Source: a virus | Strand: one strand, 5' to 3' | Length of the DNA stretch: 32,000 nt | Virus record (IMG/VR): IMGVR_UViG_3300042453_005804 | Coordinates: 1 to 32,000 of that record | Shown: positions 466-12,378 of the stretch, one piece after another | How positions within the stretch are numbered: the first letter of the stretch is position 1 | How the letters are laid out: each line of letters starts with the position of its first letter | Translations under genes and position numbers: made by a program | Notes under the pieces: generated by a model | What the model saw: the letters and a program-made list of their open reading frames with translations, nothing else | Databases searched by the model: none | What the model was told of the DNA's origin: nothing

Positions 466-491
466 CGACATGGGCACTTTTTCTCAGGTCA

Positions 492-578
492 CCCAGGATG
501 ACCCAGGAGAGGCCTAGGACAATTCGACCTAGGTTACCCCACCCCCAGTTTCAGGAACCTCTCCTGGGTCATCCTGGG
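492..578. repeat. Intergenic hairpin repeat, copy 1 (orientation A)
   Basis: 21-bp perfect inverted arms CCCAGGATGACCCAGGAGAGG (492-512) / CCTCTCCTGGGTCATCCTGGG (558-578). Core GACCTAGGTTACCCCA is identical to copy 2. Lies 13 nt past the stop of gene 592..1335. Confidence 0.85.
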
Positions 579-591
579 GGTGGGACGAGGG

Positions 592-1335
592 TCAGAACTT
601 ATCTGCCGGGACCCACTGGACGTTCCCCTTGGGGTCCTTCACCCCTGCCCGGGCATTCCACTTGCCGCGGTACTTGGAGACGCCGATCCAGAAGACCTTG
701 CCGGTGAACCCATCGACCGTGACCGTGGTGCCCTTGGTGGGGATCCGGGCCAACTGACCCTCAGCCACCGCCTTCTCGGCCTGGATCTTGGCATCTCGCT
801 TTGCTTGGCGGGCATCCTTCTTCGCCTTCTCGGCGGCGACCTGGGCAGCAGCTTCGGCGAGCTTGGCCATCCGTTCCGCCTCCGCACGGGCGATCCGAGC
901 CGCGTGGTAGGCCTCCCAGACCGCGAGCCCATCGAGCATCTCAGGACCACCGTGGAGGAGCTGCATGTCGAAAGGATCGACCGAAGGCACCAGCGAGTAG
1001 CCGTTACGATCCACGAAGAGGTTAGTGCAATCCACCCAGGCAAACTGCTCGTGGACCTCGAGGTCGCGGATCTTGTCGGCGTCCCACTTGAGAGCGTCGA
1101 AGTAGGCGACGGTGCGACCGCCGGCGTAGTGGGCATCGCGGGCTGGAACGCCGCGGGTGCCGAGCCACACGAGGGCCCAGGTGCACTCCGTCGAGCGGTG
1201 GTCCGAGTAATCGAGGGTGTCCGACCAGTTGCGGGTCTCCGTCGTCTTCTCGATCCGCAGGACGCGGTGCTGGAAGTACACCTCCGATGTGGAGGGGCCG
1301 GGACCGTAGGAGTAGCTCTTCTTGATGATCGGCAT
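592..1335 (-). CDS. hypothetical protein, 247 aa (Ala/Lys-rich helical middle, beta-rich C-terminus)
   Basis: Track ORF; ATG at +37 of 9-mer 1363-1371. Normal amino-acid composition, unlike the overlapping Arg/Pro/Ser-rich shadow ORFs. Confidence 0.75.
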   Translation of the reverse strand: MPIIKKSYSYGPGPSTSEVYFQHRVLRIEKTTETRNWSDTLDYSDHRSTECTWALVWLGTRGVPARDAHYAGGRTVAYFDALKWDADKIRDLEVHEQFAWVDCTNLFVDRNGYSLVPSVDPFDMQLLHGGPEMLDGLAVWEAYHAARIARAEAERMAKLAEAAAQVAAEKAKKDARQAKRDAKIQAEKAVAEGQLARIPTKGTTVTVDGFTGKVFWIGVSKYRGKWNARAGVKDPKGNVQWVPADKF

Positions 1336-1371
1336 GGTTCCAATCTACCACGATCACACAGGACTTTGCAC
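1336..1371 (-). promoter_or_regulatory. GTGCAAAGT-type promoter, leaderless
   Basis: rc: GTGCAAAGT-N15-TAGATT-GGAACC-ATG. Confidence 0.65.
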
Positions 1372-1388
1372 CGCCGCCCGCACTTTTT

Positions 1389-1631
1389 TCAGTCGTCGTC
1401 CACCCCGAAGGTTGAGAGGGGCTCTTCCTCCTCATCATCCTCGCCCACCTCATCCTCGTCTTCGTCCTCATCGATCTCGGCGTCTTCCTCCTCGAGGAAC
1501 CCCTCGCCCACGGCCATCTCGGCCACGTCGGCCTCCGACATGAAGGTCAGGCAGGCCCTCACCAGCACCTCGGCATCCAAGGCGCCTTCTTCCATCATCT
1601 CGAGAAGCTTGTTCGTAACTCGTCGCGTCAT
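1389..1631 (-). CDS. highly acidic 80-aa protein (Asp/Glu tail)
   Basis: Track ORF; ATG at +37 of 9-mer 1659-1667. C-terminal half reads EEEDAEIDEDEDEDEVGEDDEEEEP. Confidence 0.7.
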   Translation of the reverse strand: MTRRVTNKLLEMMEEGALDAEVLVRACLTFMSEADVAEMAVGEGFLEEEDAEIDEDEDEDEVGEDDEEEEPLSTFGVDDD

Positions 1632-1667
1632 GTTGTTACCTTATCTTGTTGGGGGTTGACTTTACAC
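1632..1667 (-). promoter_or_regulatory. GTGTAAAGT-variant promoter, leaderless
   Basis: rc: GTGTAAAGT-N15-TAAGGT-AACAAC-ATG. Confidence 0.6.
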
Positions 1668-1670
1668 CAC

Positions 1671-2057
1671 TCAGGGGAGGGGCTTGAACTCGGGACCCTT
1701 GCCGAAGACCTCACGATCGGCGTAGTGCCAGCTGTAGGTCGATCCTTGATCGTCCCCAGGCCGGAAGAGGTAGACGAACTCATAGCCTCCGTCGTCGAAG
1801 CGGATGCTGCTCGGTTTGGCATAGGTGGAGATGTCGAGGTCATCACCACGGTCACGATGGTAGGCCTGCGTGTAGTCGAGGTCCTCATGGAGAGAGGACA
1901 ACGAGCCGAGGGCCACGAGATCGAGCACCTGGCGGACCGTCGTGTAGTGAGCCTTGAGGGTCGCCCCTACGCCGGCGAGGTATCCATCATGGTGGCAGTA
2001 GATGCCGGTGACCGTGCCGTCGAGGTTCTGGATTCCGATGAAAGAGCGAGTCGACAT
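1671..2057 (-). CDS. hypothetical protein, 128 aa
   Basis: Track ORF; Shine-Dalgarno AGGAGAA 6 nt upstream of the ATG; transcribed from promoter 2123-2158 through a 65-nt leader. Confidence 0.75.
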   Translation of the reverse strand: MSTRSFIGIQNLDGTVTGIYCHHDGYLAGVGATLKAHYTTVRQVLDLVALGSLSSLHEDLDYTQAYHRDRGDDLDISTYAKPSSIRFDDGGYEFVYLFRPGDDQGSTYSWHYADREVFGKGPEFKPLP

Positions 2058-2095
2058 GTAGTTCTCCTGGGCGGAAGGTTGGCGGGGGGATTGGG

Positions 2096-2122
2096 TCAGA
2101 TGCCGATCTTGATCGTTTCCAT
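2096..2122 (-). other. leaderless 8-codon mini-ORF (METIKIGI) in the leader of gene 1671..2057
   Basis: ATG at exactly +37 of 9-mer 2150-2158; stop rc of 2096-2098; followed 38 nt later by the SD-led gene. Confidence 0.35.
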
Positions 2123-2158
2123 TGTTTTACTCTATCACCTCTCTGAGGAACTTTACAC
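2123..2158 (-). promoter_or_regulatory. GTGTAAAGT-variant promoter
   Basis: rc: GTGTAAAGT-N15-TAGAGT-AAAACA-ATG; overlaps the stop codon of gene 2153..2884. Confidence 0.6.
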
Positions 2159-2884
2159 TGCATCGATGCGATGAATCGAGACCGAAGGAGGGAGGCTACC
2201 ATCTCCACATCCGAACACCCGGATCGAATAGTGGGTGACTTCCTTGGGGCAACCCCTACGGTCGACTCGACGGACGTGACGGAACCGGTAGGTCCCAGAA
2301 TCCGGGTACTTTCCGGTCACGGAAGCGTAGGTGGAAGTGAGGCGTACGAATCGGCCTGAGCCGTTGACGCGGAGACCCTTGAAGGCCGCCTCACCGAGGT
2401 TGTCGTAGATTTGCTTGCCAACGAGCTGCTCGTGCTGGCGTTGCGTCCTCTCGACCACCTGAGCGGGTGACTCCATGGTCAACGTGATCTTCTGGGGCAA
2501 CGTCGTTGTCAGCATTTCTCCCAGCATGGCAACCATCGAGACCATGCTTTCCCGCTGCTTCAAAGTCTCTAGGTCCATGTCGCCGCCTGAAGTTCCCACG
2601 GCGATACGTAGGTAGTTTTCTAGCACCATGGCACCTTCATCATTGAGCTGTGCCCCCTTCGGGTCTGCGTTGTAGGCGACCACCAACGTGACCGACGGGT
2701 TGGACTCGTGCCAGGCGCTGCGGGCGGGGTCCAGGTTGAAGTCGTACCGAACCCCGGTCGATCCCTCCGTCACCTCACGAGCGAGGACGTCTCGGTTGTA
2801 CTTGTTCATGTGTGCAACCACACCGTGAGAGCCGATGATGGCCTTAGCGGTGCGGAGGGCTTCGATCCGGGGCGTGGCATCCAT
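2153..2884 (-). CDS. hypothetical protein, 243 aa
   Basis: Track ORF; ATG at +37 of 9-mer 2912-2920. Confidence 0.75.
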   Translation of the reverse strand: MDATPRIEALRTAKAIIGSHGVVAHMNKYNRDVLAREVTEGSTGVRYDFNLDPARSAWHESNPSVTLVVAYNADPKGAQLNDEGAMVLENYLRIAVGTSGGDMDLETLKQRESMVSMVAMLGEMLTTTLPQKITLTMESPAQVVERTQRQHEQLVGKQIYDNLGEAAFKGLRVNGSGRFVRLTSTYASVTGKYPDSGTYRFRHVRRVDRRGCPKEVTHYSIRVFGCGDGSLPPSVSIHRIDAV

Positions 2885-2920
2885 GGTTCTACCTTACCTC
2901 ATTCACCGTGCGCTTTGCAC
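2885..2920 (-). promoter_or_regulatory. GTGCAAAGC-variant promoter, leaderless
   Basis: rc: GTGCAAAGC-N15-TAAGGT-AGAACC-ATG. Confidence 0.6.
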
Positions 2921-3151
2921 TCAGGCGACACCTCGGCGTGACAGTTCGATGCCGAGAAGCTTATAGGCCGTGCGCCAGTTGCGGTGGCGGGCTCGGGCCA
3001 AGACCTGAGTGCCCGCGTCGACCTCGACGAGGAAGTCGCCACCGAACCGCCCCTTGATGCGGGTGCTGCGGACCTCGAGGGGTGTGCCTTCCGAGACGCA
3101 GAAGGAAGCCAGCTCGAGAACCTTCGCCTTGGGAGAGGAGTTTCGCTTCAT
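2921..3151 (-). CDS. hypothetical protein, 76 aa
   Basis: Track ORF; ATG at +37 of 9-mer 3179-3187. Confidence 0.65.
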   Translation of the reverse strand: MKRNSSPKAKVLELASFCVSEGTPLEVRSTRIKGRFGGDFLVEVDAGTQVLARARHRNWRTAYKLLGIELSRRGVA

Positions 3152-3187
3152 GGTTCTACCTTACCTTACCTGAGGTTGACTTTGCAC
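3152..3187 (-). promoter_or_regulatory. GTGCAAAGT-type promoter, leaderless
   Basis: rc: GTGCAAAGT-N15-TAAGGT-AGAACC-ATG. Confidence 0.65.
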
Positions 3188-3192
3188 TGCCC

Positions 3193-3465
3193 TCAGCCGA
3201 CCGCGAGAGAAAGTGCGCAGTAGCGGCCGTCGGGCAGGTTGCCCTCGTAGTTGATGGTCACGGCACCCTCACCGTCGCCGGCGATCTCGACGAACTTGAA
3301 GACCACCACCTTGCCCGTCCGGTGGCTGCGAACCGCGACCTGACCCGGTGCCCAGCCGGACTGCGGGAAGCCGGGGTGATCGCTGATCGACCCCATGCCG
3401 TGTGCGGCGCGGGCGTTGTACCAGTCGAACTTCGAACCGTCGAGGATGATCGGGAAGGTGTTCAT
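3193..3465 (-). CDS. hypothetical protein, 90 aa
   Basis: Track ORF 3193..3501 trimmed. The first 12 codons (MQSSTSKGHTET) are the translated promoter; the real ATG at 3465 is at +37. Confidence 0.65.
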   Translation of the reverse strand: MNTFPIILDGSKFDWYNARAAHGMGSISDHPGFPQSGWAPGQVAVRSHRTGKVVVFKFVEIAGDGEGAVTINYEGNLPDGRYCALSLAVG

Positions 3466-3501
3466 GGTCTCAGTATGCCCTTTCGAGGTCGAACTTTGCA
3501 C
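3466..3501 (-). promoter_or_regulatory. GTGCAAAGT-type promoter, leaderless
   Basis: rc: GTGCAAAGT-N15-CATACT-GAGACC-ATG. Confidence 0.65.
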
Positions 3502-3504
3502 CGC

Positions 3505-3732
3505 TCAGCGGTCGGAATCCGTCAACCGCTCCGGGTTGACCCACAGGAGACTGGGTTCCTCGCCGGGGTGCAGGACCACCTTGACCTGGACGGGATCCCC
3601 GACGACCGGTTGCCGGTAACCTGCATGGGTGATCCGCCGTGGGTCGACCTGGACCACCTCGGCCTCGTAGGCCCCGTGGAGCTGCCCGCGGAGGAGGAGC
3701 TTCTGACCGACCCGGATGTTCCTGTATTCCAT
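3505..3732 (-). CDS. hypothetical protein, 75 aa
   Basis: Track ORF 3505..3768 trimmed by the 12 promoter codons (MQSSTSKGYTEI); ATG 3732 at +37. Confidence 0.65.
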   Translation of the reverse strand: MEYRNIRVGQKLLLRGQLHGAYEAEVVQVDPRRITHAGYRQPVVGDPVQVKVVLHPGEEPSLLWVNPERLTDSDR

Positions 3733-3768
3733 GATCTCAGTATATCCTTTCGAGGTTGAACTTTGCAC
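3733..3768 (-). promoter_or_regulatory. GTGCAAAGT-type promoter, leaderless
   Basis: rc: GTGCAAAGT-N15-TATACT-GAGATC-ATG. Confidence 0.65.
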
Positions 3769-3786
3769 CGTGGTGGAGAACTTTTC

Positions 3787-3975
3787 TCACCGAGCCCACT
3801 GCTGGGGAATGGCCTTCCGCAGGGCCTCGAGGATCCCACCGTAGGAGTCCAGGTCTTCCCCGTCCAGGTCCGACAAGGCCGCGCGGATCCGCTTGGCTTC
3901 CTCGAGGGTGAGGTGGACGTCGACTCCGAGGTCACCGTTGCGGACGAAGGTTCGTGAGGTGCGGGTGATTTCCAT
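3787..3975 (-). CDS. hypothetical protein, 62 aa
   Basis: Track ORF 3787..4011 trimmed by the 12 promoter codons; ATG 3975 at +37. Confidence 0.6.
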   Translation of the reverse strand: MEITRTSRTFVRNGDLGVDVHLTLEEAKRIRAALSDLDGEDLDSYGGILEALRKAIPQQWAR

Positions 3976-4011
3976 GGTCTCAGTATACACTTTCTTCCGC
4001 AAACTTTGCAC
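3976..4011 (-). promoter_or_regulatory. GTGCAAAGT-type promoter, leaderless
   Basis: rc: GTGCAAAGT-N15-TATACT-GAGACC-ATG. Confidence 0.65.
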
Positions 4012-4041
4012 TGCTCACTCGCTTTTTTTTTCACATCCCCC

Positions 4042-4122
4042 AGGATGACCCAGGAGAGGTCGGGGAATGCCGGACCTAGGTTACCCCATCCGACCCCACG
4101 GTAGCCTCTCCTGGGTCATCCT
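4042..4122. repeat. Intergenic hairpin repeat, copy 2 (orientation A)
   Basis: 18-bp perfect arms AGGATGACCCAGGAGAGG (4042-4059) / CCTCTCCTGGGTCATCCT (4105-4122). Core GACCTAGGTTACCCCA at 4073-4088. Abuts the stop of gene 4122..4310. Confidence 0.85.
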
Positions 4123-4310
4123 CAGGCCCAGGACCTGGTGTAGAGATCGTCCAGGGCACTGACGGCAAATGGGGACCCGATGTGTTGCGTCCCGTCAGGC
4201 AACAACGTCACGATCCAGTACACGTCAAGGTGAGGATCGTAGTGAAGCTTCTCCCTGTGCGACATCTCATGCGTCACACGTTTGCCTTCTTTCGTTCTCT
4301 TGACACGCAT
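4122..4310 (-). CDS. hypothetical protein, 62 aa
   Basis: Track ORF; starts 3 nt after the stop of the deaminase gene; GAGGG about 10 nt upstream. Confidence 0.55.
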   Translation of the reverse strand: MRVKRTKEGKRVTHEMSHREKLHYDPHLDVYWIVTLLPDGTQHIGSPFAVSALDDLYTRSWA

Positions 4311-4313
4311 GCT

Positions 4314-4700
4314 TCATCGCCCTCTCATCGGCTTCATTACTTCACCACCGGAGTGCAAATGGATCACTCCATGTTCTATATCTGAAATCGTGTAGGCCAC
4401 TCGAGATACCCCGGCGGCCCGGATACGCACCATGCACCGGGGACAAGGCCGGGCGATACCAAGGGTTCCATCCTTCCGAACACGTGCCACCCAGATCTCA
4501 GACCCGGGAGTCAGCTTCATCGTCAACCGCGCCTCGGCATGTGCATCCGGATGGGGGAATGGAGCAGGTCCATTGGAAGCGGAGACAAGGATACCATCGT
4601 TCCTGATGCCCACCGCTCCGAGGCGGAAGGCACGAAGGTCTGACTTACGAAGGCCTGCACCAGCGGCCATCAGCAACATCTCAGTGTCAGATCGCTTCAT
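4314..4700 (-). CDS. CDA-fold zinc deaminase (cytidine/dCMP/tRNA-adenosine deaminase superfamily)
   Basis: H-A-E (DAHAEARL) and P-C-x-x-C (ARPCPRCMV) zinc motifs at the usual spacing. Start set at ATG 4700 (MKRSDTE), with GGGAG about 11 nt upstream. The track start at 4724 is a GTG. Confidence 0.7.
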   Translation of the reverse strand: MKRSDTEMLLMAAGAGLRKSDLRAFRLGAVGIRNDGILVSASNGPAPFPHPDAHAEARLTMKLTPGSEIWVARVRKDGTLGIARPCPRCMVRIRAAGVSRVAYTISDIEHGVIHLHSGGEVMKPMRGR

Positions 4701-4729
4701 TCGAAAAACCGCTCCCGTGCACACGTGCG

Positions 4730-4743
4730 TGTAACTAGTTGCA
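4730..4743. promoter_or_regulatory. 14-bp palindrome TGTAACTAGTTGCA (family TGCAACTAGTTGCA), candidate operator
   Basis: One mismatch from the perfect palindrome. Its rc is identical to the site at 14173-14186. Central TAG is the stop of gene 4735..4908. Confidence 0.55.
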
Positions 4744-4908
4744 CTCTTTTTCTGCTGCCTCGTCCAATAACGTTGCTAGATGTTTGGCCTCCTTGATTTC
4801 AGCCTTCGCCTCACTGGTCGACATGTTCCAGTACAACTTCGTCTCCACGGCAGTGGCGTACTTCCTCAAGAAGTCGGCCGCGGCCTTCATTTCCTCACGA
4901 GTCATCAT
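4735..4908 (-). CDS. hypothetical protein, 57 aa
   Basis: Track ORF 4735..4992 trimmed to MMTREEM, downstream of variant promoter 4909-4942. Confidence 0.55.
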   Translation of the reverse strand: MMTREEMKAAADFLRKYATAVETKLYWNMSTSEAKAEIKEAKHLATLLDEAAEKECN

Positions 4909-4942
4909 GCTGTTTATATCTTGTTCAGGTGCAGATTTGCAC
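4909..4942 (-). promoter_or_regulatory. GTGCAAATC-variant promoter
   Basis: rc: GTGCAAATC-N15-TATAAA-CAGC-ATG (ATG at +35). Confidence 0.5.
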
Positions 4943-5224
4943 CTATGCGATTCTTTCCATCCACAAGGAGTCGCTGGTGAAATATGTGGCATTGCACCAC
5001 CCAGGGACAGGAGTGGCCACTTTGACAGCCTCGAGGTATTTGTCCAGACCGGAGAACCTCGTTCTCTCAGAGATGATGAGGATCGTGTCTCCTGGCCGGA
5101 TGCATCCCATCATGGTCACCCGGTTGTTGATGACGTCAACGTACGTCGCTGGATGATCCGTGATGTTACCCCATATCGATGGAGCGTAGGGCTTCACCTG
5201 CCACATGGTTCCTGTCAGCTTCAT
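4943..5224 (-). CDS. hypothetical protein, 93 aa
   Basis: Track ORF; ATGA start/stop overlap with upstream gene 5221..5565. Confidence 0.6.
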   Translation of the reverse strand: MKLTGTMWQVKPYAPSIWGNITDHPATYVDVINNRVTMMGCIRPGDTILIISERTRFSGLDKYLEAVKVATPVPGWCNATYFTSDSLWMERIA

Positions 5225-5565
5225 TTGGGTGCCTTGGCAACTTTGCGGTGAATGGCGTTGAGGACCTCACCCTTTCTGAAGTTCTTCGCCTTGCGGGATG
5301 GGATCGCCTCGCCATGTTCGATGTTATGAAGCCGGCGCCTGGAGTTTTTTCCTGGACGCTTCAGGCTGTGCTCAACCAGCTTCCTCCAGAGCTTGCGGAA
5401 CTTGCGCTTCATCGCGCGTGCCTCGTCTGGGGGGAACTCGGCAAGGATCTTGTTGATGTCGAAGTAGGCCGGAGCGCCGACCTCTTGACGCCACGCAAGC
5501 GGAACGACACCCTTATTCAGAAATTCGATCTGCAACTTTAGCTTGAAAATCGAATCGTCGTACAC
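5221..5565 (-). CDS. basic hypothetical protein, 114 aa
   Basis: Track ORF; GTG start with GGAGG 5 nt upstream (rc of 5571-5575). Confidence 0.65.
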   Translation of the reverse strand: MYDDSIFKLKLQIEFLNKGVVPLAWRQEVGAPAYFDINKILAEFPPDEARAMKRKFRKLWRKLVEHSLKRPGKNSRRRLHNIEHGEAIPSRKAKNFRKGEVLNAIHRKVAKAPK

Positions 5566-5621
5566 TGTTTCCTCCGAAACCCGGGGTTAGTTACTATGGA
5601 GGAAGAAGGTCCTCCGTTCAC

Positions 5622-5804
5622 CTACTTAATCGGCAGCTTCCTGTCGTGGCAGCCCTTCATGCCGCTAATGACCACAATCATAACGATTGTTTGGTCAGGA
5701 TTACAAGTTACCACGACCTGTATCCCAGGGGATCCATCTGGATTCGAACCAGAATCGATGTCACCATCGCAACCACATTTATGGACCCATTCGTACTGTA
5801 TCAC
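5622..5804 (-). CDS. possible 60-aa Cys-containing protein
   Basis: Frame of track ORF 5622..5936 trimmed to an in-frame GTG that forms a GTGA overlap with the stop of 5801..6025. No other support. Confidence 0.3.
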   Translation of the reverse strand: MIQYEWVHKCGCDGDIDSGSNPDGSPGIQVVVTCNPDQTIVMIVVISGMKGCHDRKLPIK

Positions 5805-6025: not shown

Positions 6026-6026
6026 A

Positions 6027-6727: not shown

Positions 6728-6763
6728 GATTATACCCTATCATTTGTTTCAGCGACTTTACAA
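6728..6763 (-). promoter_or_regulatory. TTGTAAAGT-variant promoter, leaderless
   Basis: rc: TTGTAAAGT-N15-TAGGGT-ATAATC-ATG. Confidence 0.55.
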
Positions 6764-6767
6764 CAAA

Positions 6768-6986
6768 CTATGTAAAAATCTTGATGCTGCCAGCGTTCCA
6801 TTCGTCATCAATCCAATCGACCTGATACAGGTTCAGGACGGATTGAACGATGGACTTCATCTTCGTAGAGTTTCCCGTGATGACGTGAAGGGTCCACCCT
6901 TCTACCCAATGATCATTGATGAACCTGTGGACCATTTCAGAGGCATCCTCATGAGACACCCCATGCAGGTCTAAGGTATCTTCCAA
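6768..6986 (-). CDS. Smr (small MutS-related) domain protein
   Basis: TLDLHG...HVITGNS matches the Smr DLHG / (H/T)GxG signature over the whole 72-aa ORF; TTG start. Confidence 0.6.
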   Translation of the reverse strand: MEDTLDLHGVSHEDASEMVHRFINDHWVEGWTLHVITGNSTKMKSIVQSVLNLYQVDWIDDEWNAGSIKIFT

Positions 6987-6994
6987 CCGCTTGG

Positions 6995-7216
6995 TTAGAT
7001 TCCTTCTTTGACGCTGTCTGCGGCGTCGCGTAGCCCCTCCGCGAGTTCGATGGCGTCGGCCACCAGGTCGTTCAGAGCCAGATGATCGTGGTCAGGTTCT
7101 CCTTTGTGCGTGATGTCAAGGGCTTCGATCTTGTCTAGGATGGCCTCTGCATCATTGAGGATTGCAACGAAAGCCTGGAGCAGCGCTGCTTTTTCTTGGT
7201 TGTAGAATGTCGTCAT
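6995..7216 (-). CDS. acidic helical hypothetical protein, 73 aa
   Basis: Track ORF; ATGA overlap with 7213..7473. Confidence 0.6.
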   Translation of the reverse strand: MTTFYNQEKAALLQAFVAILNDAEAILDKIEALDITHKGEPDHDHLALNDLVADAIELAEGLRDAADSVKEGI

Positions 7217-7473
7217 GTCATGTCTCCTTGTGTAGATATCTCTACGAATCTTCCTTGTTCATCGTTCACCTCGAGCAAGATAGGTCGATCAAAAGCCCGT
7301 CTCATGTCGCTCAGTCCTATGACAAGAGCCTTTGTTGTTGGGGCGAGGAGAGTAGACAGTTGAGTGGCCCTGGATGTAGGTCTACATTCCTCATCATAGT
7401 AGACCTCATAGATACCATCGTAGGTGGCACCTGATGGAAGGATCTGCCTCACGATGCGTTGGTCTGACTTCAT
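7213..7473 (-). CDS. hypothetical protein, 86 aa, paralogue of 8426..8680
   Basis: Shares (Y)R(I/V)VR(Q/K)IL...YGI(Y/H)EVYYD(E/D)...PTS with 8426..8680. Confidence 0.6.
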   Translation of the reverse strand: MKSDQRIVRQILPSGATYDGIYEVYYDEECRPTSRATQLSTLLAPTTKALVIGLSDMRRAFDRPILLEVNDEQGRFVEISTQGDMT

Positions 7474-7556
7474 TTCAACTCCATCGCGAAGACCACCAGC
7501 ACGATGCCGATGGTGAGAACAGCCAGAACTTTGTCGCCAAATGTCATCTCATCCAT
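7470..7556 (-). CDS. 28-aa TM micro-protein
   Basis: In-frame ATG of track ORF 7470..7736, 2 nt after the stop of 7559..7837. Reads MDEMTFGDKVLAVLTIGIVLVVFAMELK. ATGA overlap with the next gene. Confidence 0.4.
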   Translation of the reverse strand: MDEMTFGDKVLAVLTIGIVLVVFAMELK

Positions 7557-7558
7557 GA

Positions 7559-7837
7559 TCAGTTCTTCTTGAATTTCGCCTCCACATGTTCCTGACATGC
7601 CTTGCACCCGCAGACCCGAGAACCCGTGTAGAACGTCTTCCCCCCGAGAGGATAGATCGACCCATGGATCTCTTCGCCGTTCTTCCTCCGCAACCCAGTC
7701 CAACACCCGAACACGTCCTCCTCTGCCAGGATCCAAACTCCTTCGAACATGATCTCAAGTAGAGGCCCAGCTGCGATGTCATCCGTCGGATGTTCTACGA
7801 TGGGATCAATCGGAATCGACTCAAGAACCTCGGTCAT
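7559..7837 (-). CDS. hypothetical protein, 92 aa (C-terminal CGCKAC cluster)
   Basis: Track ORF; ATG at +36 of 9-mer 7864-7872. Confidence 0.65.
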   Translation of the reverse strand: MTEVLESIPIDPIVEHPTDDIAAGPLLEIMFEGVWILAEEDVFGCWTGLRRKNGEEIHGSIYPLGGKTFYTGSRVCGCKACQEHVEAKFKKN

Positions 7838-7872
7838 GGTCTTAATATATCACTTTCCTTGAGACTTTACAC
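7838..7872 (-). promoter_or_regulatory. GTGTAAAGT-variant promoter, leaderless
   Basis: rc: GTGTAAAGT-N14-TATATT-AAGACC-ATG. Confidence 0.6.
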
Positions 7873-7879
7873 TACCTGA

Positions 7880-7958
7880 GGATGACCCAGGAGAGGTTAC
7901 GAAAAGCCACCCCTTGGTAACCTTCCATGATTTGCTAAAAACCTCTCCTGGGTCATCC
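7880..7958. repeat. Intergenic hairpin repeat, copy 3 (orientation B, core inverted)
   Basis: 17-bp perfect arms GGATGACCCAGGAGAGG (7880-7896) / CCTCTCCTGGGTCATCC (7942-7958). The core carries GGTAACC, the rc of the GGTTACC in copies 1 and 2. Confidence 0.85.
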
Positions 7959-7969
7959 GGGTGTCAGGA

Positions 7970-8269
7970 TCAAGCCGCTAGTTCGACCCGTCCCTTCAGG
8001 ATCACCAGCTTCGTTCCCCCGCCGTCTTGTACCCTGGCAATGACTTCATTGGCCCAGAGCTGAGGGTGAGACGGGTCGAGGATGGGATCCACAGATACGA
8101 CCTTGTGAAACTCACCGCCTGGAATTTTGACGACCTGTCCAGGCACCACTTGATTTGCAGGAACCATCTTTGCTTCCGGTATTTGAATCTCGATTATCGA
8201 GGCTTGCTTATCTTGTGCCTCTTGCTTCTTCTTTCGTGCCATTGCCGCAATGTATCTCTGCTGCACCAA
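7970..8269 (-). CDS. hypothetical protein, up to 99 aa
   Basis: Track ORF. Start is uncertain (TTG 8269, GTG 8266 or ATG 8242) and none has a clear SD. Confidence 0.5.
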   Translation of the reverse strand: MVQQRYIAAMARKKKQEAQDKQASIIEIQIPEAKMVPANQVVPGQVVKIPGGEFHKVVSVDPILDPSHPQLWANEVIARVQDGGGTKLVILKGRVELAA

Positions 8270-8286
8270 TGGTAAACCCGTTGGGT

Positions 8287-8421
8287 CTACTTGTACCAGT
8301 CCTCCTTGTGGCGGGCGTCCTTCGGGCGCCGGTTACGACGATCTTTCATACGGGTTGTCGTCGTGGCGTGTCGAAGAGTCATGGCCACGGCGATAGGGTT
8401 TTGCTTCCTCTTGTTCTTCAT
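8287..8421 (-). CDS. 44-aa highly basic micro-protein
   Basis: Not in ORF track. ATG at +37 of 9-mer 8449-8457. Reads MKNKRKQNPIAVAMTLRHATTTTRMKDRRNRRPKDARHKEDWYK, stop rc of 8287-8289. Confidence 0.5.
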   Translation of the reverse strand: MKNKRKQNPIAVAMTLRHATTTTRMKDRRNRRPKDARHKEDWYK

Positions 8422-8457
8422 GGTTCTACTCTACCACGTTCGACTCTGACTTTACAC
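8422..8457 (-). promoter_or_regulatory. GTGTAAAGT-variant promoter, leaderless
   Basis: rc: GTGTAAAGT-N15-TAGAGT-AGAACC-ATG. Confidence 0.6.
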
Positions 8458-8680
8458 CGATCGAATCGTAATCAAGAACCGGCTTCTCCAAGGCCGAGGC
8501 GTAATGCCGCGCGTCTTGGGCCAACTCGTCCTCGGACTCACCATAAGGGGTGACAGGGTTGACGGTACATGAAGTCGGTATGTGATCGTCATCGTAGTAG
8601 ACCTCATGGATTCCGTACTGAGTTGTGGTGTATCCTTCACCAGAGAGGATCTTGCGGACAACTCGGTAATTCCAGCTCAT
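8426..8680 (-). CDS. hypothetical protein, 84 aa, paralogue of 7213..7473
   Basis: Track ORF; ATGA overlap with 8677..8868; shared YRVVRKIL / EVYYDD / PTS motifs. Confidence 0.6.
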   Translation of the reverse strand: MSWNYRVVRKILSGEGYTTTQYGIHEVYYDDDHIPTSCTVNPVTPYGESEDELAQDARHYASALEKPVLDYDSIGVKSESNVVE

Positions 8681-8868
8681 CCCCCGAAGTCACCTCCTGC
8701 TAGCCATGAGTCGATGTCCCGCCGTGCGGTCTTTTCGAATTGCTTTGGCCCACACGACATGCAGATGAAGTATGTCGTCGAGTCGTCCTGCACGTAACGT
8801 GTCCCGGGGCCATGTCGTCCGCAATCGTCGCAGGTGTCCGTGCTGATGTTGCTGTTCTCGTTGCTCAT
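8677..8868 (-). CDS. small zinc-ribbon protein, 63 aa
   Basis: CDDC...CMSC pairs. Track ORF (TTG at 8889) trimmed to ATG 8868, which is preceded by a purine-rich GAAAGAAAAAGAA. Confidence 0.55.
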   Translation of the reverse strand: MSNENSNISTDTCDDCGRHGPGTRYVQDDSTTYFICMSCGPKQFEKTARRDIDSWLAGGDFGG

Positions 8869-8914
8869 TTCTTTTTCTTTCAAGGTCAAGAGGTTGTGGT
8901 TAGTGGCCAGCGTT

Positions 8915-8950
8915 GAAATCAGTATATCACGATGGGTCTAAGGTTTGCAC
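8915..8950 (-). promoter_or_regulatory. GTGCAAACC-variant promoter with about 45-nt leader
   Basis: rc: GTGCAAACC-N15-TATACT-GATTTC-AAC. No ATG at +37; the gene starts downstream. Confidence 0.5.
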
Positions 8951-8959
8951 CGCGTGGTG

Positions 8960-9802
8960 TTAAGATTTTGACAAGATTTCCAGTTCGATGAGAGCCTCCT
9001 TTGCCTTCATCGGCAACGACAACGTATTGGGGAAACCATCGGAATCTCGAGTATTGATGCGAATGAGTGGAGCATTGAGCTTGTTTGACAACAAAGAACT
9101 CTTCGCCCGCACACTGGGGATGTGTTTGCCTGCGCCCAACTCGATGACAACGGTTGCGACATGACGATCTACCAAGGTCCGGACCCACTCCGTCATCTTC
9201 TCGTCTTGCTCATCGGCACGAGAGAAATTCCATCCTGGATCACCAAACATCAGGATGTTCGGCCTCAAGAGCTCTCCGCAGCGCGGGCAGGCGGGTAGCG
9301 GGCTCTGGGCCTCAAACGTCTTGGAATCCACATCGATCTTAACACGTTCTGCAGGCAGAATGCCGATGCCACATCCCTTTGTGCACTGGACGTGATGGAT
9401 GGATCCATGGCATTCCACGATACGATCAGGGTCGAAACCAGCCTTCTGGAAGGCACCATCCACGTTAGACGTGAAGACGAAGGCACCATGCTTCATGCCT
9501 CGAGCAAGACGCTTAAGAACGTCGAAGCCTGCGTGAGGTTGGGTCGCTCGGTACAGGTTGAGCCGGTGACCATAGAATCCCCATGCCAACGCCGGGTTAT
9601 CCTCAAACCACCTCGGGTTGGCCATGTCGGAGAAGGTGAGACCAAGGTGCTTGTACGCCGGATAGGCGTTCCAGAAACCTTCATCTCCTCGGAAATCGGG
9701 CAGACCGCTATCCACCCCCATTCCTGCTCCAGCCGTGATGATGAGTGCGTCAGCTACTCGCAATAGCTGGGCTGCCCGTTGAAGCGTCTCTTGCGTGTCC
9801 AT
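8960..9802 (-). CDS. Sir2-family NAD-dependent protein deacylase (sirtuin)
   Basis: GAGMGVDSGLPDFRG, FTSNVDG, ECHGS, zinc Cys pairs CTKGC/CPRC, RPNILMFGD. ATG at +37 of 9-mer 9830-9838. Confidence 0.85.
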   Translation of the reverse strand: MDTQETLQRAAQLLRVADALIITAGAGMGVDSGLPDFRGDEGFWNAYPAYKHLGLTFSDMANPRWFEDNPALAWGFYGHRLNLYRATQPHAGFDVLKRLARGMKHGAFVFTSNVDGAFQKAGFDPDRIVECHGSIHHVQCTKGCGIGILPAERVKIDVDSKTFEAQSPLPACPRCGELLRPNILMFGDPGWNFSRADEQDEKMTEWVRTLVDRHVATVVIELGAGKHIPSVRAKSSLLSNKLNAPLIRINTRDSDGFPNTLSLPMKAKEALIELEILSKS

Positions 9803-9838
9803 GGTTCTACCTTACCTTGTTTGAGGTTAACTTTGCAC
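9803..9838 (-). promoter_or_regulatory. GTGCAAAGT-type promoter, leaderless
   Basis: rc: GTGCAAAGT-N15-TAAGGT-AGAACC-ATG. The 9-mer overlaps the last 3 nt of tRNA-Arg. Confidence 0.65.
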
Positions 9839-9909
9839 CGCTGACAGGAGTCGAACCTGTGGCCTGATCGTTAGGAATGATCTGCTCTATCCGTCTGAGC
9901 TACAGCGGC
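9836..9909 (-). tRNA. tRNA-Arg(CCU)
   Basis: Hand-folded cloverleaf. Acceptor GCCGCTG/CAGCGGT (G1-U72 wobble), D arm GCTC/GAGC, anticodon loop TTCCTAA, T arm ACAGG-TTCGACT-CCTGT. No encoded CCA. Confidence 0.8.
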
Positions 9910-9916
9910 ATGGCCA

Positions 9917-10528
9917 TCAGGCCTTCTTACGCTTTGCTTTCTTCTTGGCCTTCATCTCTGCCTTGGCCTTACGTTCCGCAACCACGATCTCCTTCGGTCG
10001 GTTCTTGGTCCCCGGCGGACGCCCCCGCTTCTTCTTGATCGGTTGACCATTCTCATCCAGTTGGACAGGCTCTACCGGCTTCTCCTGGCCAAGGGGCACC
10101 ACCTTACGGGGCCGACCACGCTTACGACCTTGAATCTGCAGACCACCCTTGGCCGGCGGGACCTTGAACCGGTAGCCAACCTTGGGCGCGGTGAGGTAGT
10201 TCGACATGGCATGGCACTTGCCTGCGTCATCCCAGAGCATCAGGTTACCGGTGACTCCGTCGATGGTCTCCACTGTGTACACCTTCGTGTCGAGCCACTG
10301 CTTCCCAGGAAGAACAGAGGCCACACGCTCGATGATGACTCGCTCGCCGGGAGGGATCGTGAACACGGGCACGCCGTCCTCGTCCAACTCGATGGCATCC
10401 TCGAGGAGGTCAATGATGGGCTTCTGCGCGAGGCGGGCCTTCTCTTTCGCCTCGTTCGCAAGGATCGAGGAGATCGACTCAAACTCGGGTTCCTCGAACG
10501 GGGGCGGCAGGATGGTGTCGTCGTTCAT
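9917..10528 (-). CDS. AT-hook DNA-binding protein, 203 aa
   Basis: Two RGRP AT-hook cores (GRKRGRPRK, KKRGRPPGTKN) and a Lys-rich tail; ATG at +37 of 9-mer 10556-10564. Confidence 0.7.
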   Translation of the reverse strand: MNDDTILPPPFEEPEFESISSILANEAKEKARLAQKPIIDLLEDAIELDEDGVPVFTIPPGERVIIERVASVLPGKQWLDTKVYTVETIDGVTGNLMLWDDAGKCHAMSNYLTAPKVGYRFKVPPAKGGLQIQGRKRGRPRKVVPLGQEKPVEPVQLDENGQPIKKKRGRPPGTKNRPKEIVVAERKAKAEMKAKKKAKRKKA

Positions 10529-10564
10529 GGTTAGATCCTATCACGTCAAGCTGGAACTTTGCAC
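10529..10564 (-). promoter_or_regulatory. GTGCAAAGT-type promoter, leaderless
   Basis: rc: GTGCAAAGT-N15-TAGGAT-CTAACC-ATG. Confidence 0.65.
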
Positions 10565-10573
10565 TGCCACGAG

Positions 10574-10663
10574 CTATTTGTTGTCCAGGGTGGCTACAAC
10601 CCCCAAGGGGAAGAGCACAGCCATCACGAAGCAGCAGATGATCTTCAAGACCAAGGTAGCCAT
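10574..10663 (-). CDS. 29-aa TM micro-protein
   Basis: Not in ORF track. TAATG stop/start overlap with 10663..10881. Reads MATLVLKIICCFVMAVLFPLGVVATLDNK. Confidence 0.4.
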   Translation of the reverse strand: MATLVLKIICCFVMAVLFPLGVVATLDNK

Positions 10664-10881
10664 TAAGCCACACTCATCCGTTCGGGAGACGCCAAGTGGT
10701 ACCTTTCGCCTCTCTTCTCGACCCGGGCGATCAGTGCGTCGAGGTCTTGGCGAAGGCCCATGTCAGTTGACTCGCCACGAAGTTTGTACAAAGCCAACAT
10801 CACCATCTCATCCACCCCAGCGGGATCTGTCAACGTTCCTTTGACGTAGAACAGCAATGCTTCTTTGAGTCGAGAGTTCAT
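10663..10881 (-). CDS. hypothetical protein, 72 aa
   Basis: Track ORF; GAGGA 6 nt upstream of the ATG. Confidence 0.6.
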   Translation of the reverse strand: MNSRLKEALLFYVKGTLTDPAGVDEMVMLALYKLRGESTDMGLRQDLDALIARVEKRGERYHLASPERMSVA

Positions 10882-10890
10882 GGCTTATCC

Positions 10891-11169
10891 TCAATCTTGT
10901 TTAGGATCCGACCAAAGACAAAAGGCAACCCCGAAGGCCGTGCCACCTGCGAGAGTCAACATGAATGTGGCGGTGTTCCAGCCGAGGAAGAAGCCGAAGA
11001 AGAGCCACCCGAGGATGGCAGGTCCTAGCGACATGATGGGCAACATGAAAAGCCAGTAGCCTACCCGAAAGAGCCGCGGGAAGGCCAGCGCGAAGACCAT
11101 GAGGATGAGGTAGAGAGTTCCGGTCCCCATCAGGGCCGAGACGCCCCACCCGATGAACAGATTGATCAT
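10891..11169 (-). CDS. integral membrane protein, 92 aa (3 predicted TM helices)
   Basis: Track ORF, strongly hydrophobic; ATG at +37 of 9-mer 11197-11205. Confidence 0.7.
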   Translation of the reverse strand: MINLFIGWGVSALMGTGTLYLILMVFALAFPRLFRVGYWLFMLPIMSLGPAILGWLFFGFFLGWNTATFMLTLAGGTAFGVAFCLWSDPKQD

Positions 11170-11205
11170 GGTTCTATCCTACCTTTTCTAGGTTGAACTT
11201 TGCAC
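11170..11205 (-). promoter_or_regulatory. GTGCAAAGT-type promoter, leaderless
   Basis: rc: GTGCAAAGT-N15-TAGGAT-AGAACC-ATG. Confidence 0.65.
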
Positions 11206-11412
11206 AGAGAAGTAGTTGTGCGCGTTCCGCGTGATCCACTCCACGGCCGGCCACATCTTGGAATCGTCGTAGAAGGCATCGAGCTGAACCGCGAGGAGGT
11301 CTCGGTAGAGATGCGGGTGGAGAGTGGACACAACGTTCATGAAAGCTTGCCCTCGGCGCTGGCCTTGACCGTGAGGTTCCAAAGCCAACTGGAGGAACTC
11401 TTCTAGATCCAT
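11188..11412 (-). CDS. hypothetical protein, 74 aa
   Basis: Track ORF; ATG at +37 of 9-mer 11440-11448; 3' end overlaps the next promoter. Confidence 0.6.
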   Translation of the reverse strand: MDLEEFLQLALEPHGQGQRRGQAFMNVVSTLHPHLYRDLLAVQLDAFYDDSKMWPAVEWITRNAHNYFSVQSST

Positions 11413-11448
11413 AGTTCAACCCTATCAGGTTCGAGGCTAACTTTGCAC
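11413..11448 (-). promoter_or_regulatory. GTGCAAAGT-type promoter, leaderless
   Basis: rc: GTGCAAAGT-N15-TAGGGT-TGAACT-ATG. Confidence 0.65.
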
Positions 11449-11697
11449 TCAGGCCGAGAGATAGACGACCCAGGACTTGCCCTTGGCCTCGTAGGCGAGG
11501 ATGCCGTCATCCACCTCGACCGCCTCCTCATTGGCCTGGATGGTCCGGAGGATCTTGGCCACCATCTTCGGGTCGGCCCGGTCGATCTCGATGCCTGCGG
11601 CATGGCCGTAGTACTTGCCCTTGCAGCCGCACATGCAGCCGATCTTGCCGACGTACGCCTTGACCACCTGCGAGGGAGAGATGCTCTGGATGTCCAT
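11449..11697 (-). CDS. hypothetical protein, 82 aa
   Basis: Track ORF 11449..11733 trimmed by the 12 promoter codons (MQSSTRKGYTKA); ATG 11697 at +37. Confidence 0.65.
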   Translation of the reverse strand: MDIQSISPSQVVKAYVGKIGCMCGCKGKYYGHAAGIEIDRADPKMVAKILRTIQANEEAVEVDDGILAYEAKGKSWVVYLSA

Positions 11698-11733
11698 GGC
11701 CTTAGTATACCCTTTCCTCGTTGAACTTTGCAC
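11698..11733 (-). promoter_or_regulatory. GTGCAAAGT-type promoter, leaderless
   Basis: rc: GTGCAAAGT-N15-TATACT-AAGGCC-ATG. Confidence 0.65.
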
Positions 11734-11748
11734 TATCCCCGCAGATTT

Positions 11749-12048
11749 TCAGGCGGCCTTGCGCGCCTTCCGGACCGGCTTGGCCTTGGGTTCGATGACC
11801 GCCCGGCGGATTGGGGTGAGGAACCGGAGCCCGACACCGCCGACGTCGACCGGCGGGACGACCTCGAGGATCTGGACGTCTGCCGTCGGGCCCTTGGGGA
11901 AGCGGTGCGCGATCGAACGTGCCTCGTCGATCGACCCCGTTACGGCGAGGATCTGCGCAGGGGAGAAGCGGGGAGCTCCGCTACGGTCGACCTCGAGGAG
12001 GTGGACGATTTGGACGACGAAGGAGCTTGCTGCCTTGTTGTGTTCCAT
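11749..12048 (-). CDS. hypothetical protein, 99 aa, basic C-terminus
   Basis: Track ORF 11749..12285 trimmed to ATG 12048 (MEHNKAAS), at +37 of 9-mer 12076-12084. The longer ORF would run through the promoter and repeat copy 4. Confidence 0.65.
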   Translation of the reverse strand: MEHNKAASSFVVQIVHLLEVDRSGAPRFSPAQILAVTGSIDEARSIAHRFPKGPTADVQILEVVPPVDVGGVGLRFLTPIRRAVIEPKAKPVRKARKAA

Positions 12049-12084
12049 GGGTCCAATATACCAAACTCGGTAGCGACTTTGCAC
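12049..12084 (-). promoter_or_regulatory. GTGCAAAGT-type promoter, leaderless (outermost minus-strand promoter)
   Basis: rc: GTGCAAAGT-N15-TATATT-GGACCC-ATG. Confidence 0.65.
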
Positions 12085-12110
12085 AGCCCCCAAACAATTT
12101 GTAAAAGAGC

Positions 12111-12191
12111 CAGGATGCCCTTGGAGAGGCCTCACCTTGAGCCAAGGGGTAACCTCATTCGACTCGAGAAAAGCCTTCCAAGGGCATCCTG
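12111..12191. repeat. Intergenic hairpin repeat, copy 4 (orientation B, covarying arms)
   Basis: Arms CAGGATGCCCTTGGAGAGG (12111-12129) / CCTTCCAAGGGCATCCTG (12174-12191): 15 bp, 1-nt bulge, 3 bp. Both arms are changed in concert relative to copies 1-3. rc core TCGAATGAGGTTACCCC resembles the copy 1 core. Confidence 0.8.
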
Positions 12192-12349: not shown

Positions 12350-12378
12350 AGAGAGAGAAAAAAAAAGTTCTCGCAAAA

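Follow-up and report, generated by a model that had tools for sequence, protein, structure and literature searches.

The window analysed here, a stretch of 32,000 nucleotides, comes from an uncultivated freshwater phage and contains four hairpins, three of 79 nt and one of 77 nt, that separate leaderless gene units. All the genes neighbouring the hairpins are leaderless and lie on the minus strand. The four copies were found where an earlier note on this DNA had placed them, with minimal bounds slightly tighter in copies 1, 2 and 4. The features are as follows:

496..574, minus strand: hairpin copy 1, 79 nt; arms 496-512 and 558-574, with pairing extending to 492-578; centre GGTTACC at 532-538
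4043..4121, minus strand: hairpin copy 2, 79 nt; arms 4043-4059 and 4105-4121; centre GGTTACC at 4079-4085
7880..7958, minus strand: hairpin copy 3, 79 nt; arms 7880-7896 and 7942-7958; centre GGTAACC at 7916-7922
12113..12189, minus strand: hairpin copy 4, 77 nt; arms GGATGCCCTTGGAGAGG / CCTTCCAAGGGCATCC; centre GGTAACC at 12148-12154
427..465, minus strand: promoter and ATG of gene 253-429, leaderless; 30 nt downstream of copy 1
3973..4011, minus strand: promoter and ATG of gene 3787-3975, leaderless; 31 nt downstream of copy 2, with an A9 tract between
7835..7872, minus strand: promoter and ATG of gene 7559-7837, leaderless; 7 nt downstream of copy 3
12046..12084, minus strand: first leftward promoter and ATG of gene 11749-12048, leaderless; 28 nt downstream of copy 4
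14147..14166, plus strand: small hairpin GGGGTAGG-GTAA-CCTACCCC, 8 nt past the stop of a KaiC-like gene

The arm sequence GGATGACCCAGGAGAGG was present in six exact matches in the window, forming three inverted pairs with a constant spacing of 62 nt, and the left arm of copy 4 matched it with three mismatches. Including copy 4, these were 7 matches against 0.2 expected, a number reached in none of 100 shuffles. The perfect stem of copy 1 joins 492-512 to 558-578 and is 21 bp long, and those of copies 2 and 3 measure 18 and 19 bp, respectively, in agreement with the perfect inverted arms of 17-21 bp described previously. In the stem of copy 4, a 1-nt bulge separates 13 bp within the arm proper, or 17 when the flanks are counted, from a further 4 bp, and three stem pairs of this copy had changed on both sides relative to copies 1-3 (A-U to C-G, C-G to U-A and A-U to U-A); thus, the paired changes that the earlier note saw in this copy are real, but its geometry of 15 bp, bulge and 3 bp had to be corrected. 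Within the window, copies 1-3 carry type A arms and copy 4 carries type B arms. The arms of copies 1-3 did not differ at any position (0/34), whereas their interiors differed by 44-62%. The arm sequence also contains an SD-like AGGAGAGG and an anti-SD-like CCUCUCC, both read directly from the sequence.

Folding and a covariance model, the checks suggested for these elements, gave stable folds and no fifth copy in the 32-kb window, and solo arms were almost absent. The folding energies of the four elements lay between -54 and -63 kcal/mol, with z between -5.3 and -8.4; in a ranking of 90-nt windows across the 32 kb by stability, all four fell within the top seven, and they were the strongest structures in the cluster. 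The energy was lower on the transcribed strand, but the shuffle means differed likewise, so that this difference is largely compositional. In the Rfam search of the window only tRNAs reached the gathering threshold and no family was assigned to the hairpins; at E<=5 they matched only miRNA-precursor models, far below threshold.

The stem encloses a 45-nt interior with the core GGT(T/A)ACC (near-palindromic GGTNACC), itself palindromic, at the exact centre of the element. The sequence GACCTAGGTTACCCCA was identical between copies 1 and 2, and the core matched as its reverse complement at 10/10 positions in copy 4 (AGGTTACCCC) and 8/8 positions in copy 3 (AGGTTACC), an orientation call that depends on few bases because the central core is itself palindromic. 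The core was thus found in both orientations relative to transcription, and the reversal noted before holds for copy 4 against the core shared by copies 1 and 2, while in copy 3 it amounts to just those eight positions at a palindromic apex. The further proposal of a flippable core was not borne out: core orientation was constant among all orthologues of each copy, and the extra copy of the relative L149 is chimeric, with no clean inversion. The interiors were poorly conserved and mostly without significant structure; the interior of copy 3 folds, on the minus strand alone, into a G·U-rich hairpin of 13 bp, and a hairpin confined to the transcribed strand is found here in all four orthologues. 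Separately, the small hairpin at 14147-14166 shares the GGGTAACC core without long arms, and its membership of the family is uncertain.

The stop codons upstream of copies 1, 2 and 3 were located at 592-594, 4122-4124 and 7970-7972, leaving gaps to the hairpin of 17, 0 and 11 nt, respectively. In particular, the gene before copy 1 (592-1335, minus strand) encodes 247 aa, and the stop codon of the ORF at 4122-4310 (minus strand) abuts copy 2. Copy 4 lies in a divergent intergenic region with no minus-strand gene upstream; no recognisable leftward promoter was found upstream of it, the candidate there having the wrong spacing and being absent in L149. The downstream promoters (starts 465, 4011, 7872 and 12084) were of the type GTG[CT]AAAGT-N14-(G)TAnnnT-N6-ATG, with the upstream motif GTGCAAAGT instead of TTGACA. 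In copies 1, 2 and 4, as well as in the extra copy of L149 and in the relative L125, the hairpin lies 28-31 nt from the promoter although the spacer sequences are unrelated; in copy 3 the distance is 7 nt (17-20 nt in two relatives). Copies 1-3 are therefore placed between a stop codon (0-17 nt before) and the next promoter (7-31 nt after), as first described, and hairpins were present at only 4 of ~20 leftward promoters. A MoxR/VWA gene pair resembling N4 gp24/gp25 prompted us to look at N4-type promoters. The hairpin promoter of the N4 virion RNA polymerase has a 5-7-bp stem and a 3-nt loop and lies upstream of the early transcription start; the 17-21-bp stems and the 45-nt interior do not fit this type.

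Related metagenomic phage contigs contained hairpins at the same four junctions, and every relative covering a junction had kept the hairpin, down to about 69–75% DNA identity, while the surrounding small genes come and go. This long-term retention includes copy 4, which is conserved in seven relatives. The more distant relatives L125 and L136 showed the same order of stop codon, hairpin and promoter-like element. Between orthologues the arms differed at 11/340 positions and the interiors at 70/446 (counts that exclude the copy 1 orthologue of a 212-kb contig); the arms thus evolved about five times slower, which indicates selection. In that copy 1 orthologue, whose genome is 87% identical, the arms GGATGCCCTTGGGGAGG/CCTCCCCAAGGGCATCC represent four compensated pairs. 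The arm changes among orthologues were mostly compensatory. Four stem pairs were altered on both sides; both-side changes occupied 19 cells against 9.9 in shuffles (0/500 shuffles reached 19), and pairing was 89.6% against 37-55% with the partners slid. Maintenance of the stem by compensatory change, claimed from copy 4, was therefore seen in orthologues too. Among single-sided stem changes, G·U pairs arose 8 times on the transcribed strand and 2 times on the other by our own counting of events (p about 0.07, not significant); background transitions were balanced (128 vs 119).

We tentatively favour the reading that hairpin and promoter together make up a cassette whose upstream half, the transcribed hairpin, would act as a transcript-end, processing or insulator element. 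From the positions of genes and promoters we infer that the hairpins are transcribed: each would be the 3' end of the transcript from the minus-strand unit before it and fold into the 17-21-bp stem around its 45-nt interior, and the upstream transcript would be ended at, or cleaved within, the hairpin, either through termination that needs no U-tract, through processing of the RNase III type, or because the hairpin blocks a 3' exonuclease. The promoter ~30 bp downstream might then be free to fire without read-through from upstream, an insulation that could be relevant to leaderless genes, which are translated when the mRNA begins with the AUG. The active form would be RNA rather than DNA, and the enzyme that acts on it is putative. 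The stems of 17-21 perfect pairs correspond to the about two turns (~20 bp) of dsRNA expected for RNase III, and are compatible with its cleavage.

Several observations favour this transcript-end role, namely the position of copies 1-3 directly past minus-strand stops and of all four copies before a promoter, the repetition of this order in L125 and L136, the compensatory stem changes, the slow arms and the retention at the junctions. Canonical terminator-like sites, which could serve as alternatives, were not enriched (15 vs 10.2 expected; 22 vs 19.6), and no structure in the cluster is stronger than the hairpins. The G·U bias to the transcribed strand and the copy 3 interior that folds on this strand only point the same way, although the bias is not significant and the strand energy difference is largely compositional. 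A classical intrinsic terminator is ruled out, in agreement with the earlier note, by the missing U-tract and by an interior far above the typical loop of ~3-8 nt: none of the four copies was followed by a U-tract on either strand (minus-strand 3' flanks TGGGTG, TGGGGG, TCAGGT and TGGCTC), and a terminator scan of the window did not list the four elements. Copies 1-3 lie downstream of a gene, unlike copy 4, which is conserved yet has neither an upstream gene nor a recognisable leftward promoter. Also unfavourable are the scarcity of hairpins among the leftward promoters, the core in both orientations, which argues against a loop-specific RNA function, and the clustering of most hairpin-to-promoter distances at 28-31 nt, for which a terminator role does not account. 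Finally, a generic structural role needs no such identity as that of the six arms beside divergent interiors; the identical arm sequence suggests a putative sequence-specific partner or copy-to-copy conversion.

This arm identity, together with the constant 62-bp spacing (~6 helical turns), would be expected if a dimeric phage or host protein bound the arms as dsDNA or as a cruciform and regulated the promoter ~30 bp downstream. The recurrent 28-31 nt to the promoter despite unrelated spacers, the location of copy 4 in a divergent control region without an upstream gene, and symmetric arms around an either-way core would also suit DNA recognition. We nevertheless regard such a control site as unlikely: the arms covary both within the genome and between orthologues, which is not predicted unless template switching homogenises them, one strand accepts G·U wobbles, the distance is shorter at copy 3 and in two relatives, solo arms are almost absent, and the window yielded no candidate binding protein. 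It is decidedly less likely, but conceivable, that a dedicated factor recognises the hairpin by shape and arm sequence and couples, at the fixed ~30 bp, the upstream transcript end to the next leaderless promoter, in a unit that moves genes between such phages; an insulator/activator cassette of this sort would be new in kind and confined to phages in which all genes are leaderless. We see little chance that the hairpin itself is the product, excised from the 3' UTR (e.g. by RNase III at the stem base) as a small RNA, decoy or protein sponge. Its size and stem length are like those of processed hairpin RNAs, the sub-threshold Rfam matches were to miRNA-precursor models only, the conserved arms hold the SD-like and anti-SD-like motifs, and copy 4 could be a stand-alone unit; however, no promoter was found for copy 4, the interiors are poorly conserved, mostly unstructured and centred on a core in both orientations, and no complementary targets were found in the window.

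The earlier note had also considered a miniature mobile element, and a selfish palindromic element (MITE-, Correia- or ERIC-like) that spread within the phage without a function of its own, with incidental RNA effects, would explain terminal inverted repeats around a short non-coding conserved core, the size of ~80 nt and the intergenic location in both orientations. The extra chimeric copy of L149 adjoins an inserted gene, L139 contains a hairpin-plus-promoter unit whose neighbouring genes are unrelated to those next to the window copies, and copy 4, if delimited as A-GGATG...CATCC-T, has GGCTC on either side. This origin seems highly unlikely given that copies 1-3 lack direct repeats (target-site duplication) and GGCTC is not retained in the copy 4 orthologues, that no relative covering a junction has an empty site, and that the arms are about five times better conserved than the interiors. 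Moreover, just 4 copies exist, in one 12-kb cluster of leftward genes; pattern scans of the 212-kb contig and of a 73-kb contig found none elsewhere, sampled matches with one genome per bacterial or archaeal species included no matching element, and no transposase domain was detected in the 10 largest ORFs tested. Gene order in relatives, a comparison that had been recommended, showed gains and losses that break at or beside promoter repeats: L140 is without window positions 280-422, L001 is without 3197-4003, and L149 has ~630 extra nt after P12084. These mapped breakpoints lie outside the hairpins, and we consider it most improbable that recombination at the arms themselves shuffles gene modules or inverts the interior, even if the L149 copy is copy 2-like in its left half and copy 4-like in its right half, joined at the core, and the copy 1 orthologue of L128 has swapped arms. 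Interior orientation is fixed in every orthologous group, and the G+C difference across copy 2 (61% between copies 1 and 2, 52% between copies 2 and 3) is gradual there and absent at copy 3.

The elements share features with several known systems. ERIC, REP and BIME repeats are transcribed intergenic imperfect palindromes that occur either way round and can make neighbouring mRNA more or less stable. The hairpins have in common with them the intergenic palindrome in either orientation, but those repeats are chromosomal and high-copy, with REPs of ~35 nt, and we know of none in a phage early-type gene cluster; these palindromic repeats of bacteria have been reviewed (PMC3184786). The Neisseria CREE/NEMIS elements also enclose a conserved core in an inverted repeat, are intergenic and are linked to adjacent promoters, and RNase III binds their hairpins, with cleavage or protection as the outcome (PMC2649163). 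CREEs measure 100-155 bp, occur in many copies per genome and have been reported to be mobilised between strains (PMC2649163), whereas here 4 copies lie in one phage gene cluster, with no duplications, empty sites or sequence similarity. Intrinsic terminators are alike in the G+C-rich hairpin right after a stop codon (copies 1-3), and differ in their 3-8-nt loop and U-tract and in that the arm sequence is conserved among the copies here. The RNase III sites of T7 are likewise several sequence-related ~20-bp hairpins between cistrons of a phage cluster, without a U-tract; a hairpin left at the 3' end reportedly stabilises the upstream mRNA (Dunn and Studier). The T7 sites, however, all face one way, carry a characteristic internal loop and act within long polycistronic RNAs, while here each gene has its own promoter and the core runs both ways.

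The hairpins, which most likely mark or insulate transcript ends, resemble terminator–promoter cassettes known from phages, in an unusually large form. In the PeSL (promoter-early stem-loop) cassettes of T4-type phages, a stem-loop proposed to end transcription from upstream is combined with a repeated promoter between small accessory ORFs, and recombination between cassettes accounts for gene indels between relatives (PMC2839356, PMC4122927). The comparison with PeSL made at the outset proved apt, as the hairpins stand beside promoter repeats and the indels or replacements are bounded by such units. PeSL stem-loops are short and take various positions in or around a sigma-70-like promoter, which is itself followed by a Shine-Dalgarno sequence; in this phage, by contrast, a 79-nt hairpin with sequence-conserved arms is separate from the promoter, at few of the promoters, and the genes are leaderless, their ATG following TAnnnT by 6 nt, and GTGCAAAGT takes the place of TTGACA.

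All four hairpin copies claimed in the earlier note proved real, and we read them in the window sequence at the following positions, each as two inverted arms around an interior.

Hairpin copies (coordinates, strand, element, length)
496-574, minus: hairpin copy 1, 79 nt
4043-4121, minus: hairpin copy 2, 79 nt
7880-7958, minus: hairpin copy 3, 79 nt
12113-12189, minus: hairpin copy 4, 77 nt

The 17-mer arm GGATGACCCAGGAGAGG has six exact occurrences in the window, forming three inverted pairs with 62-nt spacing, and the left arm of copy 4 matches it with three mismatches; counting that arm, there are 7 matches against 0.2 expected. Pairing is perfect over 18-21 bp in copies 1-3. The stem of copy 4, previously described as 15 bp, a bulge and 3 bp, was found instead to comprise 13 bp (17 with flanks) that a one-base bulge separates from another 4 bp. 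Folding energies range from -54 to -63 kcal/mol (z-scores -5.3 to -8.4), and among sliding 90-nt windows of the 32 kb copies 1-3 are the three most stable and copy 4 ranks seventh. A covariance model built from 16 members of the hairpin family recovered no copy in the 32 kb beyond the four, and an Rfam search of the elements at gathering and permissive thresholds returned no relevant family. None of copies 1-4 is followed by a U-tract, and canonical terminator-like sites showed no enrichment in the window.

Two other hairpins were observed in the window. A second 80-nt hairpin (17781-17860; -58 kcal/mol, z -7.2) lies inside the ORF 17707-18195, has unrelated arms (CCCGAGCGGCATCACTC) and contains a promoter-like piece, CATGGTTCTACCTT, in its loop; the stem of its counterpart in the related locus L003 has uncompensated changes. 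The other, GGGGTAGG-GTAA-CCTACCCC, is short (14147-14166), lies 8 nt past the stop codon of a KaiC-like gene, has a GGGTAACC core in common with the large elements and carries a predicted GNRA tetraloop.

Stem evolution was examined in an alignment of 16 distinct sequences in transcribed orientation (that of the genes flanking the copies), in which 21 pairs were scored, including the 17-bp arm stem. Four pairs of this arm stem had changed on both sides and nine were invariant. Paired cells amounted to 89.6%, against 37-55% with slid partners, and two-sided changes affected 19 cells, compared with 9.9 in shuffles. The covariation first noticed in copy 4 extends to orthologues: the copy 1 orthologue of a 212-kb contig, whose genome is 87% identical, has arms GGATGCCCTTGGGGAGG/CCTCCCCAAGGGCATCC with four pairs compensated relative to the window, and more compensated single pairs occur in the metagenomic locus L139 and, for copy 2, in the L001 and L162 orthologues. 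With the 212-kb copy 1 orthologue left out, orthologues differed at 11 of 340 arm positions and at 70 of 446 interior positions; among the window paralogues, the arms of copies 1-3 are identical and the interiors 44-62% different. Pairing has thus been maintained, and the arm sequence is in addition conserved or homogenised.

The exact centre of each element is GGT(T/A)ACC, itself palindromic; this sequence occurs 7 times in the window, 5 of them within intergenic hairpins. Copies 1 and 2 carry the asymmetric core GGGGTAACCT on the transcribed strand, and copy 4 has it on the opposite one (10/10); when TCGA-N3-AGGTTACCCC is compared in register, 14 of 17 positions agree between copy 4 and copy 1 read as its reverse complement, and the core orientation of copy 3 rests on only 8 bases. 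Since the orientation is the same across all orthologues of each copy, ongoing inversion is not indicated, and the flippable core suggested earlier is not supported. An extra copy in the locus L149 combines a left half like that of copy 2 with a right half like that of copy 4, the two meeting at the core, and exchange there explains it as well as inversion does.

Genes lie on the minus strand over 1-12100 and on the plus strand over about 12300-23000, each set being transcribed from copies of one repeated promoter, GTG[CT]AAAGT-N14-(G)TAnnnT-N6-ATG, with about 27 instances on both strands of window 1-21000, such as the following.

12379-12417, plus: promoter repeat with ATG
3973-4011, minus: promoter repeat with ATG

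An A-tract often stands about 12 nt upstream of the promoter. The genes are leaderless, because the start codon coincides with the expected transcription start. Read on the minus strand, copies 1, 2 and 3 start 17, 0 and 11 nt past a stop codon, and the hairpin end is 30, 31, 7 and 28 nt from the next leaderless promoter in copies 1, 2, 3 and 4, respectively. Copy 4 lies in the divergent region, before the first leftward promoter, with no upstream gene. A candidate leftward promoter upstream of it was rejected (spacing 3 nt too long, absent in L149), as was a promoterless operon between copies 3 and 2, where a mismatch-tolerant scan gave two degenerate promoters (6763 and 5824). The hairpins did not act as boundaries of G+C steps either, the only shift being a gradual one at copy 2. 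The divergent control region also holds a palindrome, GTTGAAAGTTACTTTCAC (12250-12267), kept in the loci L142 and L149, which resembles two inverted promoter-type upstream motifs and may be a candidate operator.

Sir2, a KaiC-like ATPase and a MoxR/VWA pair with a distant resemblance to N4 gp24/gp25 are among the ORFs tested, none of which was a transposase or nuclease adjoining the elements. Megablast of 13 kb against GenBank phages gave no match, hence no close sequenced-phage relative; the best protein matches were N4-like phages (at most 31% identity), and the hairpin dimensions do not fit an N4-type hairpin promoter. We also observed a 12-tRNA-gene array at 18239-20012 and, in the leftward cluster, a lone tRNA-Arg(CCT) at 9835-9909(-), directly upstream of promoter 9838. 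Over window 24000-32000 the G+C falls from about 58% to 37-47%, and at least 8 ORFs, there and at 1-107(-) and 23564-23974(-), start with MK(I/L)xLxxLRxIIRE, a common N-terminal leader ending in I-x-E that recalls capsid-targeting and prohead-protease leaders.

By pattern scanning, the element was detected in a few IMG/VR and metagenome contigs, to which the promoter motif is common, and orthologues at the four junctions were present in every relative covering the junction, down to about 69-75% DNA identity. Two contigs from one sample (212,804 bp and 73,430 bp) contained only copy 1, 2, 3 and 4 orthologues in whole-contig scans and model search, so the family is confined to this cluster and not dispersed. 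These contigs (L007/L128 and L011, sample 3300022752) end close to the copy 2 hairpin, the larger 17 nt past it and the locus of the smaller 31 nt past it on the other side, apparently also a contig end; both may derive from a single genome of ~286 kb, with a break at the hairpin that may reflect low coverage, palindrome effects or heterogeneity. At another contig end (L147:1-240), a GGATGGCC...GGCCATCC hairpin forms the middle of a perfect palindrome whose two sides each measure at least 80 nt; fold-back during assembly, as an artefact, or a hairpin telomere could explain it.

Hairpins of 78-79 nt that share the outer arm pattern and are centred on a GGTTACC-like sequence occur in more distant phage-like contigs (L124-L127, L131, L136/L219, L214 and L234), and the order stop codon, hairpin, promoter-like element recurred in both of the two whose surroundings were read. 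No bacterial or archaeal genome among the sampled matches carries the phage hairpin. In IMG/VR, matches to a loose single-arm pattern were nearly all chance, and those to the core-only pattern GGGGTAACCTAGGTC beyond related phage contigs were armless and look like chance. A two-arm pattern, run on metagenomes and one genome per species, recovered the phage family plus several look-alike palindromes, mainly an 80-nt Luteimonas/Lysobacter element present in multiple copies, GGATGCCCTTGGGTGCGAA...TTCGCACCCAAGGGCATCC, whose interior contains AAGGAGGAGG. We rejected it as a homologue, as the common bases are essentially only those forced by the pattern and the interiors are unrelated. This element (L255-L364 in genomes; L145, L157, L171, L192, L200 and others) is found either way round among the loci retrieved and has the look of a REP or MITE. 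A literature search with sequence strings gave nothing relevant.

The best-supported reading is that of a transcribed hairpin that closes the upstream unit and insulates the leaderless promoter following it; closure would come about through termination, through cleavage of the RNase III type or through protection of the 3' end. An mRNA without a leader is translated when its 5' end is the start codon, so dozens of individually promoted leaderless genes would have a special need for read-through to be stopped or cut, and the hairpins are the only strong candidates for this in the cluster. Single-sided stem changes gave G·U on the transcribed strand in 8 events and on the other strand in 2 (our count), an excess that is suggestive only (about p = 0.07, our calculation). 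Mutational bias does not account for it: when three genomes were compared over the adjacent 3.4 kb with changes polarised, 128 transitions were wobble-forming and 119 mismatch-forming. Copy 3 has an interior that folds into a G·U-rich hairpin on the transcribed strand only, in 4 of 4 orthologues; interior structure in the other copies was no better than in shuffles. The lower folding energy of the transcribed strand was set aside as mostly compositional.

A purely generic role fits poorly with the strict arm sequence, the 28-31-nt promoter spacing of most copies and a conserved copy 4 with nothing upstream. For these reasons a DNA-level regulatory site is a serious rival to the transcribed hairpin, and a dedicated recognition factor is a possibility; conservation of the arms in both sequence and pairing points to a specific partner. 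The miniature mobile element proposed in the earlier note is improbable as a transposing MITE, since target duplications and empty sites are lacking and the copies are restricted to one cluster. If the hairpins were inert palindromes, they would be a modest curiosity; if insulation by the hairpin is true, they would illustrate how a phage with leaderless genes keeps its transcription units apart.

The relatives differ by indels the size of genes, and the mapped ends of these coincide with promoter repeats or adjoin them.

L140 (related locus): window 280-422 missing
L001 (related locus): window 3197-4003 missing
L149 (related locus): about 630 nt more, among them a gene and the extra hairpin
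L139 (related locus): hairpin-plus-promoter unit whose flanking genes are unrelated to the neighbours of the window copies

Indels bounded by terminator/promoter cassettes have been reported for the PeSL (promoter-early stem-loop) cassettes of T4-type phages (PMC2839356, PMC4122927), and the breakpoints seen here follow that pattern, which bears out the comparison drawn earlier; if the function holds, terminator–promoter cassettes as vehicles of gene shuffling would extend beyond T4-type phages. Although the hairpin falls outside the PeSL, T7 RNase III site and Correia classes, fitting neither their sequence nor their defining features, and belongs to no Rfam family, its proposed action resembles that of the PeSL stem-loop, the T7 RNase III site and the Correia element (PMC2649163).
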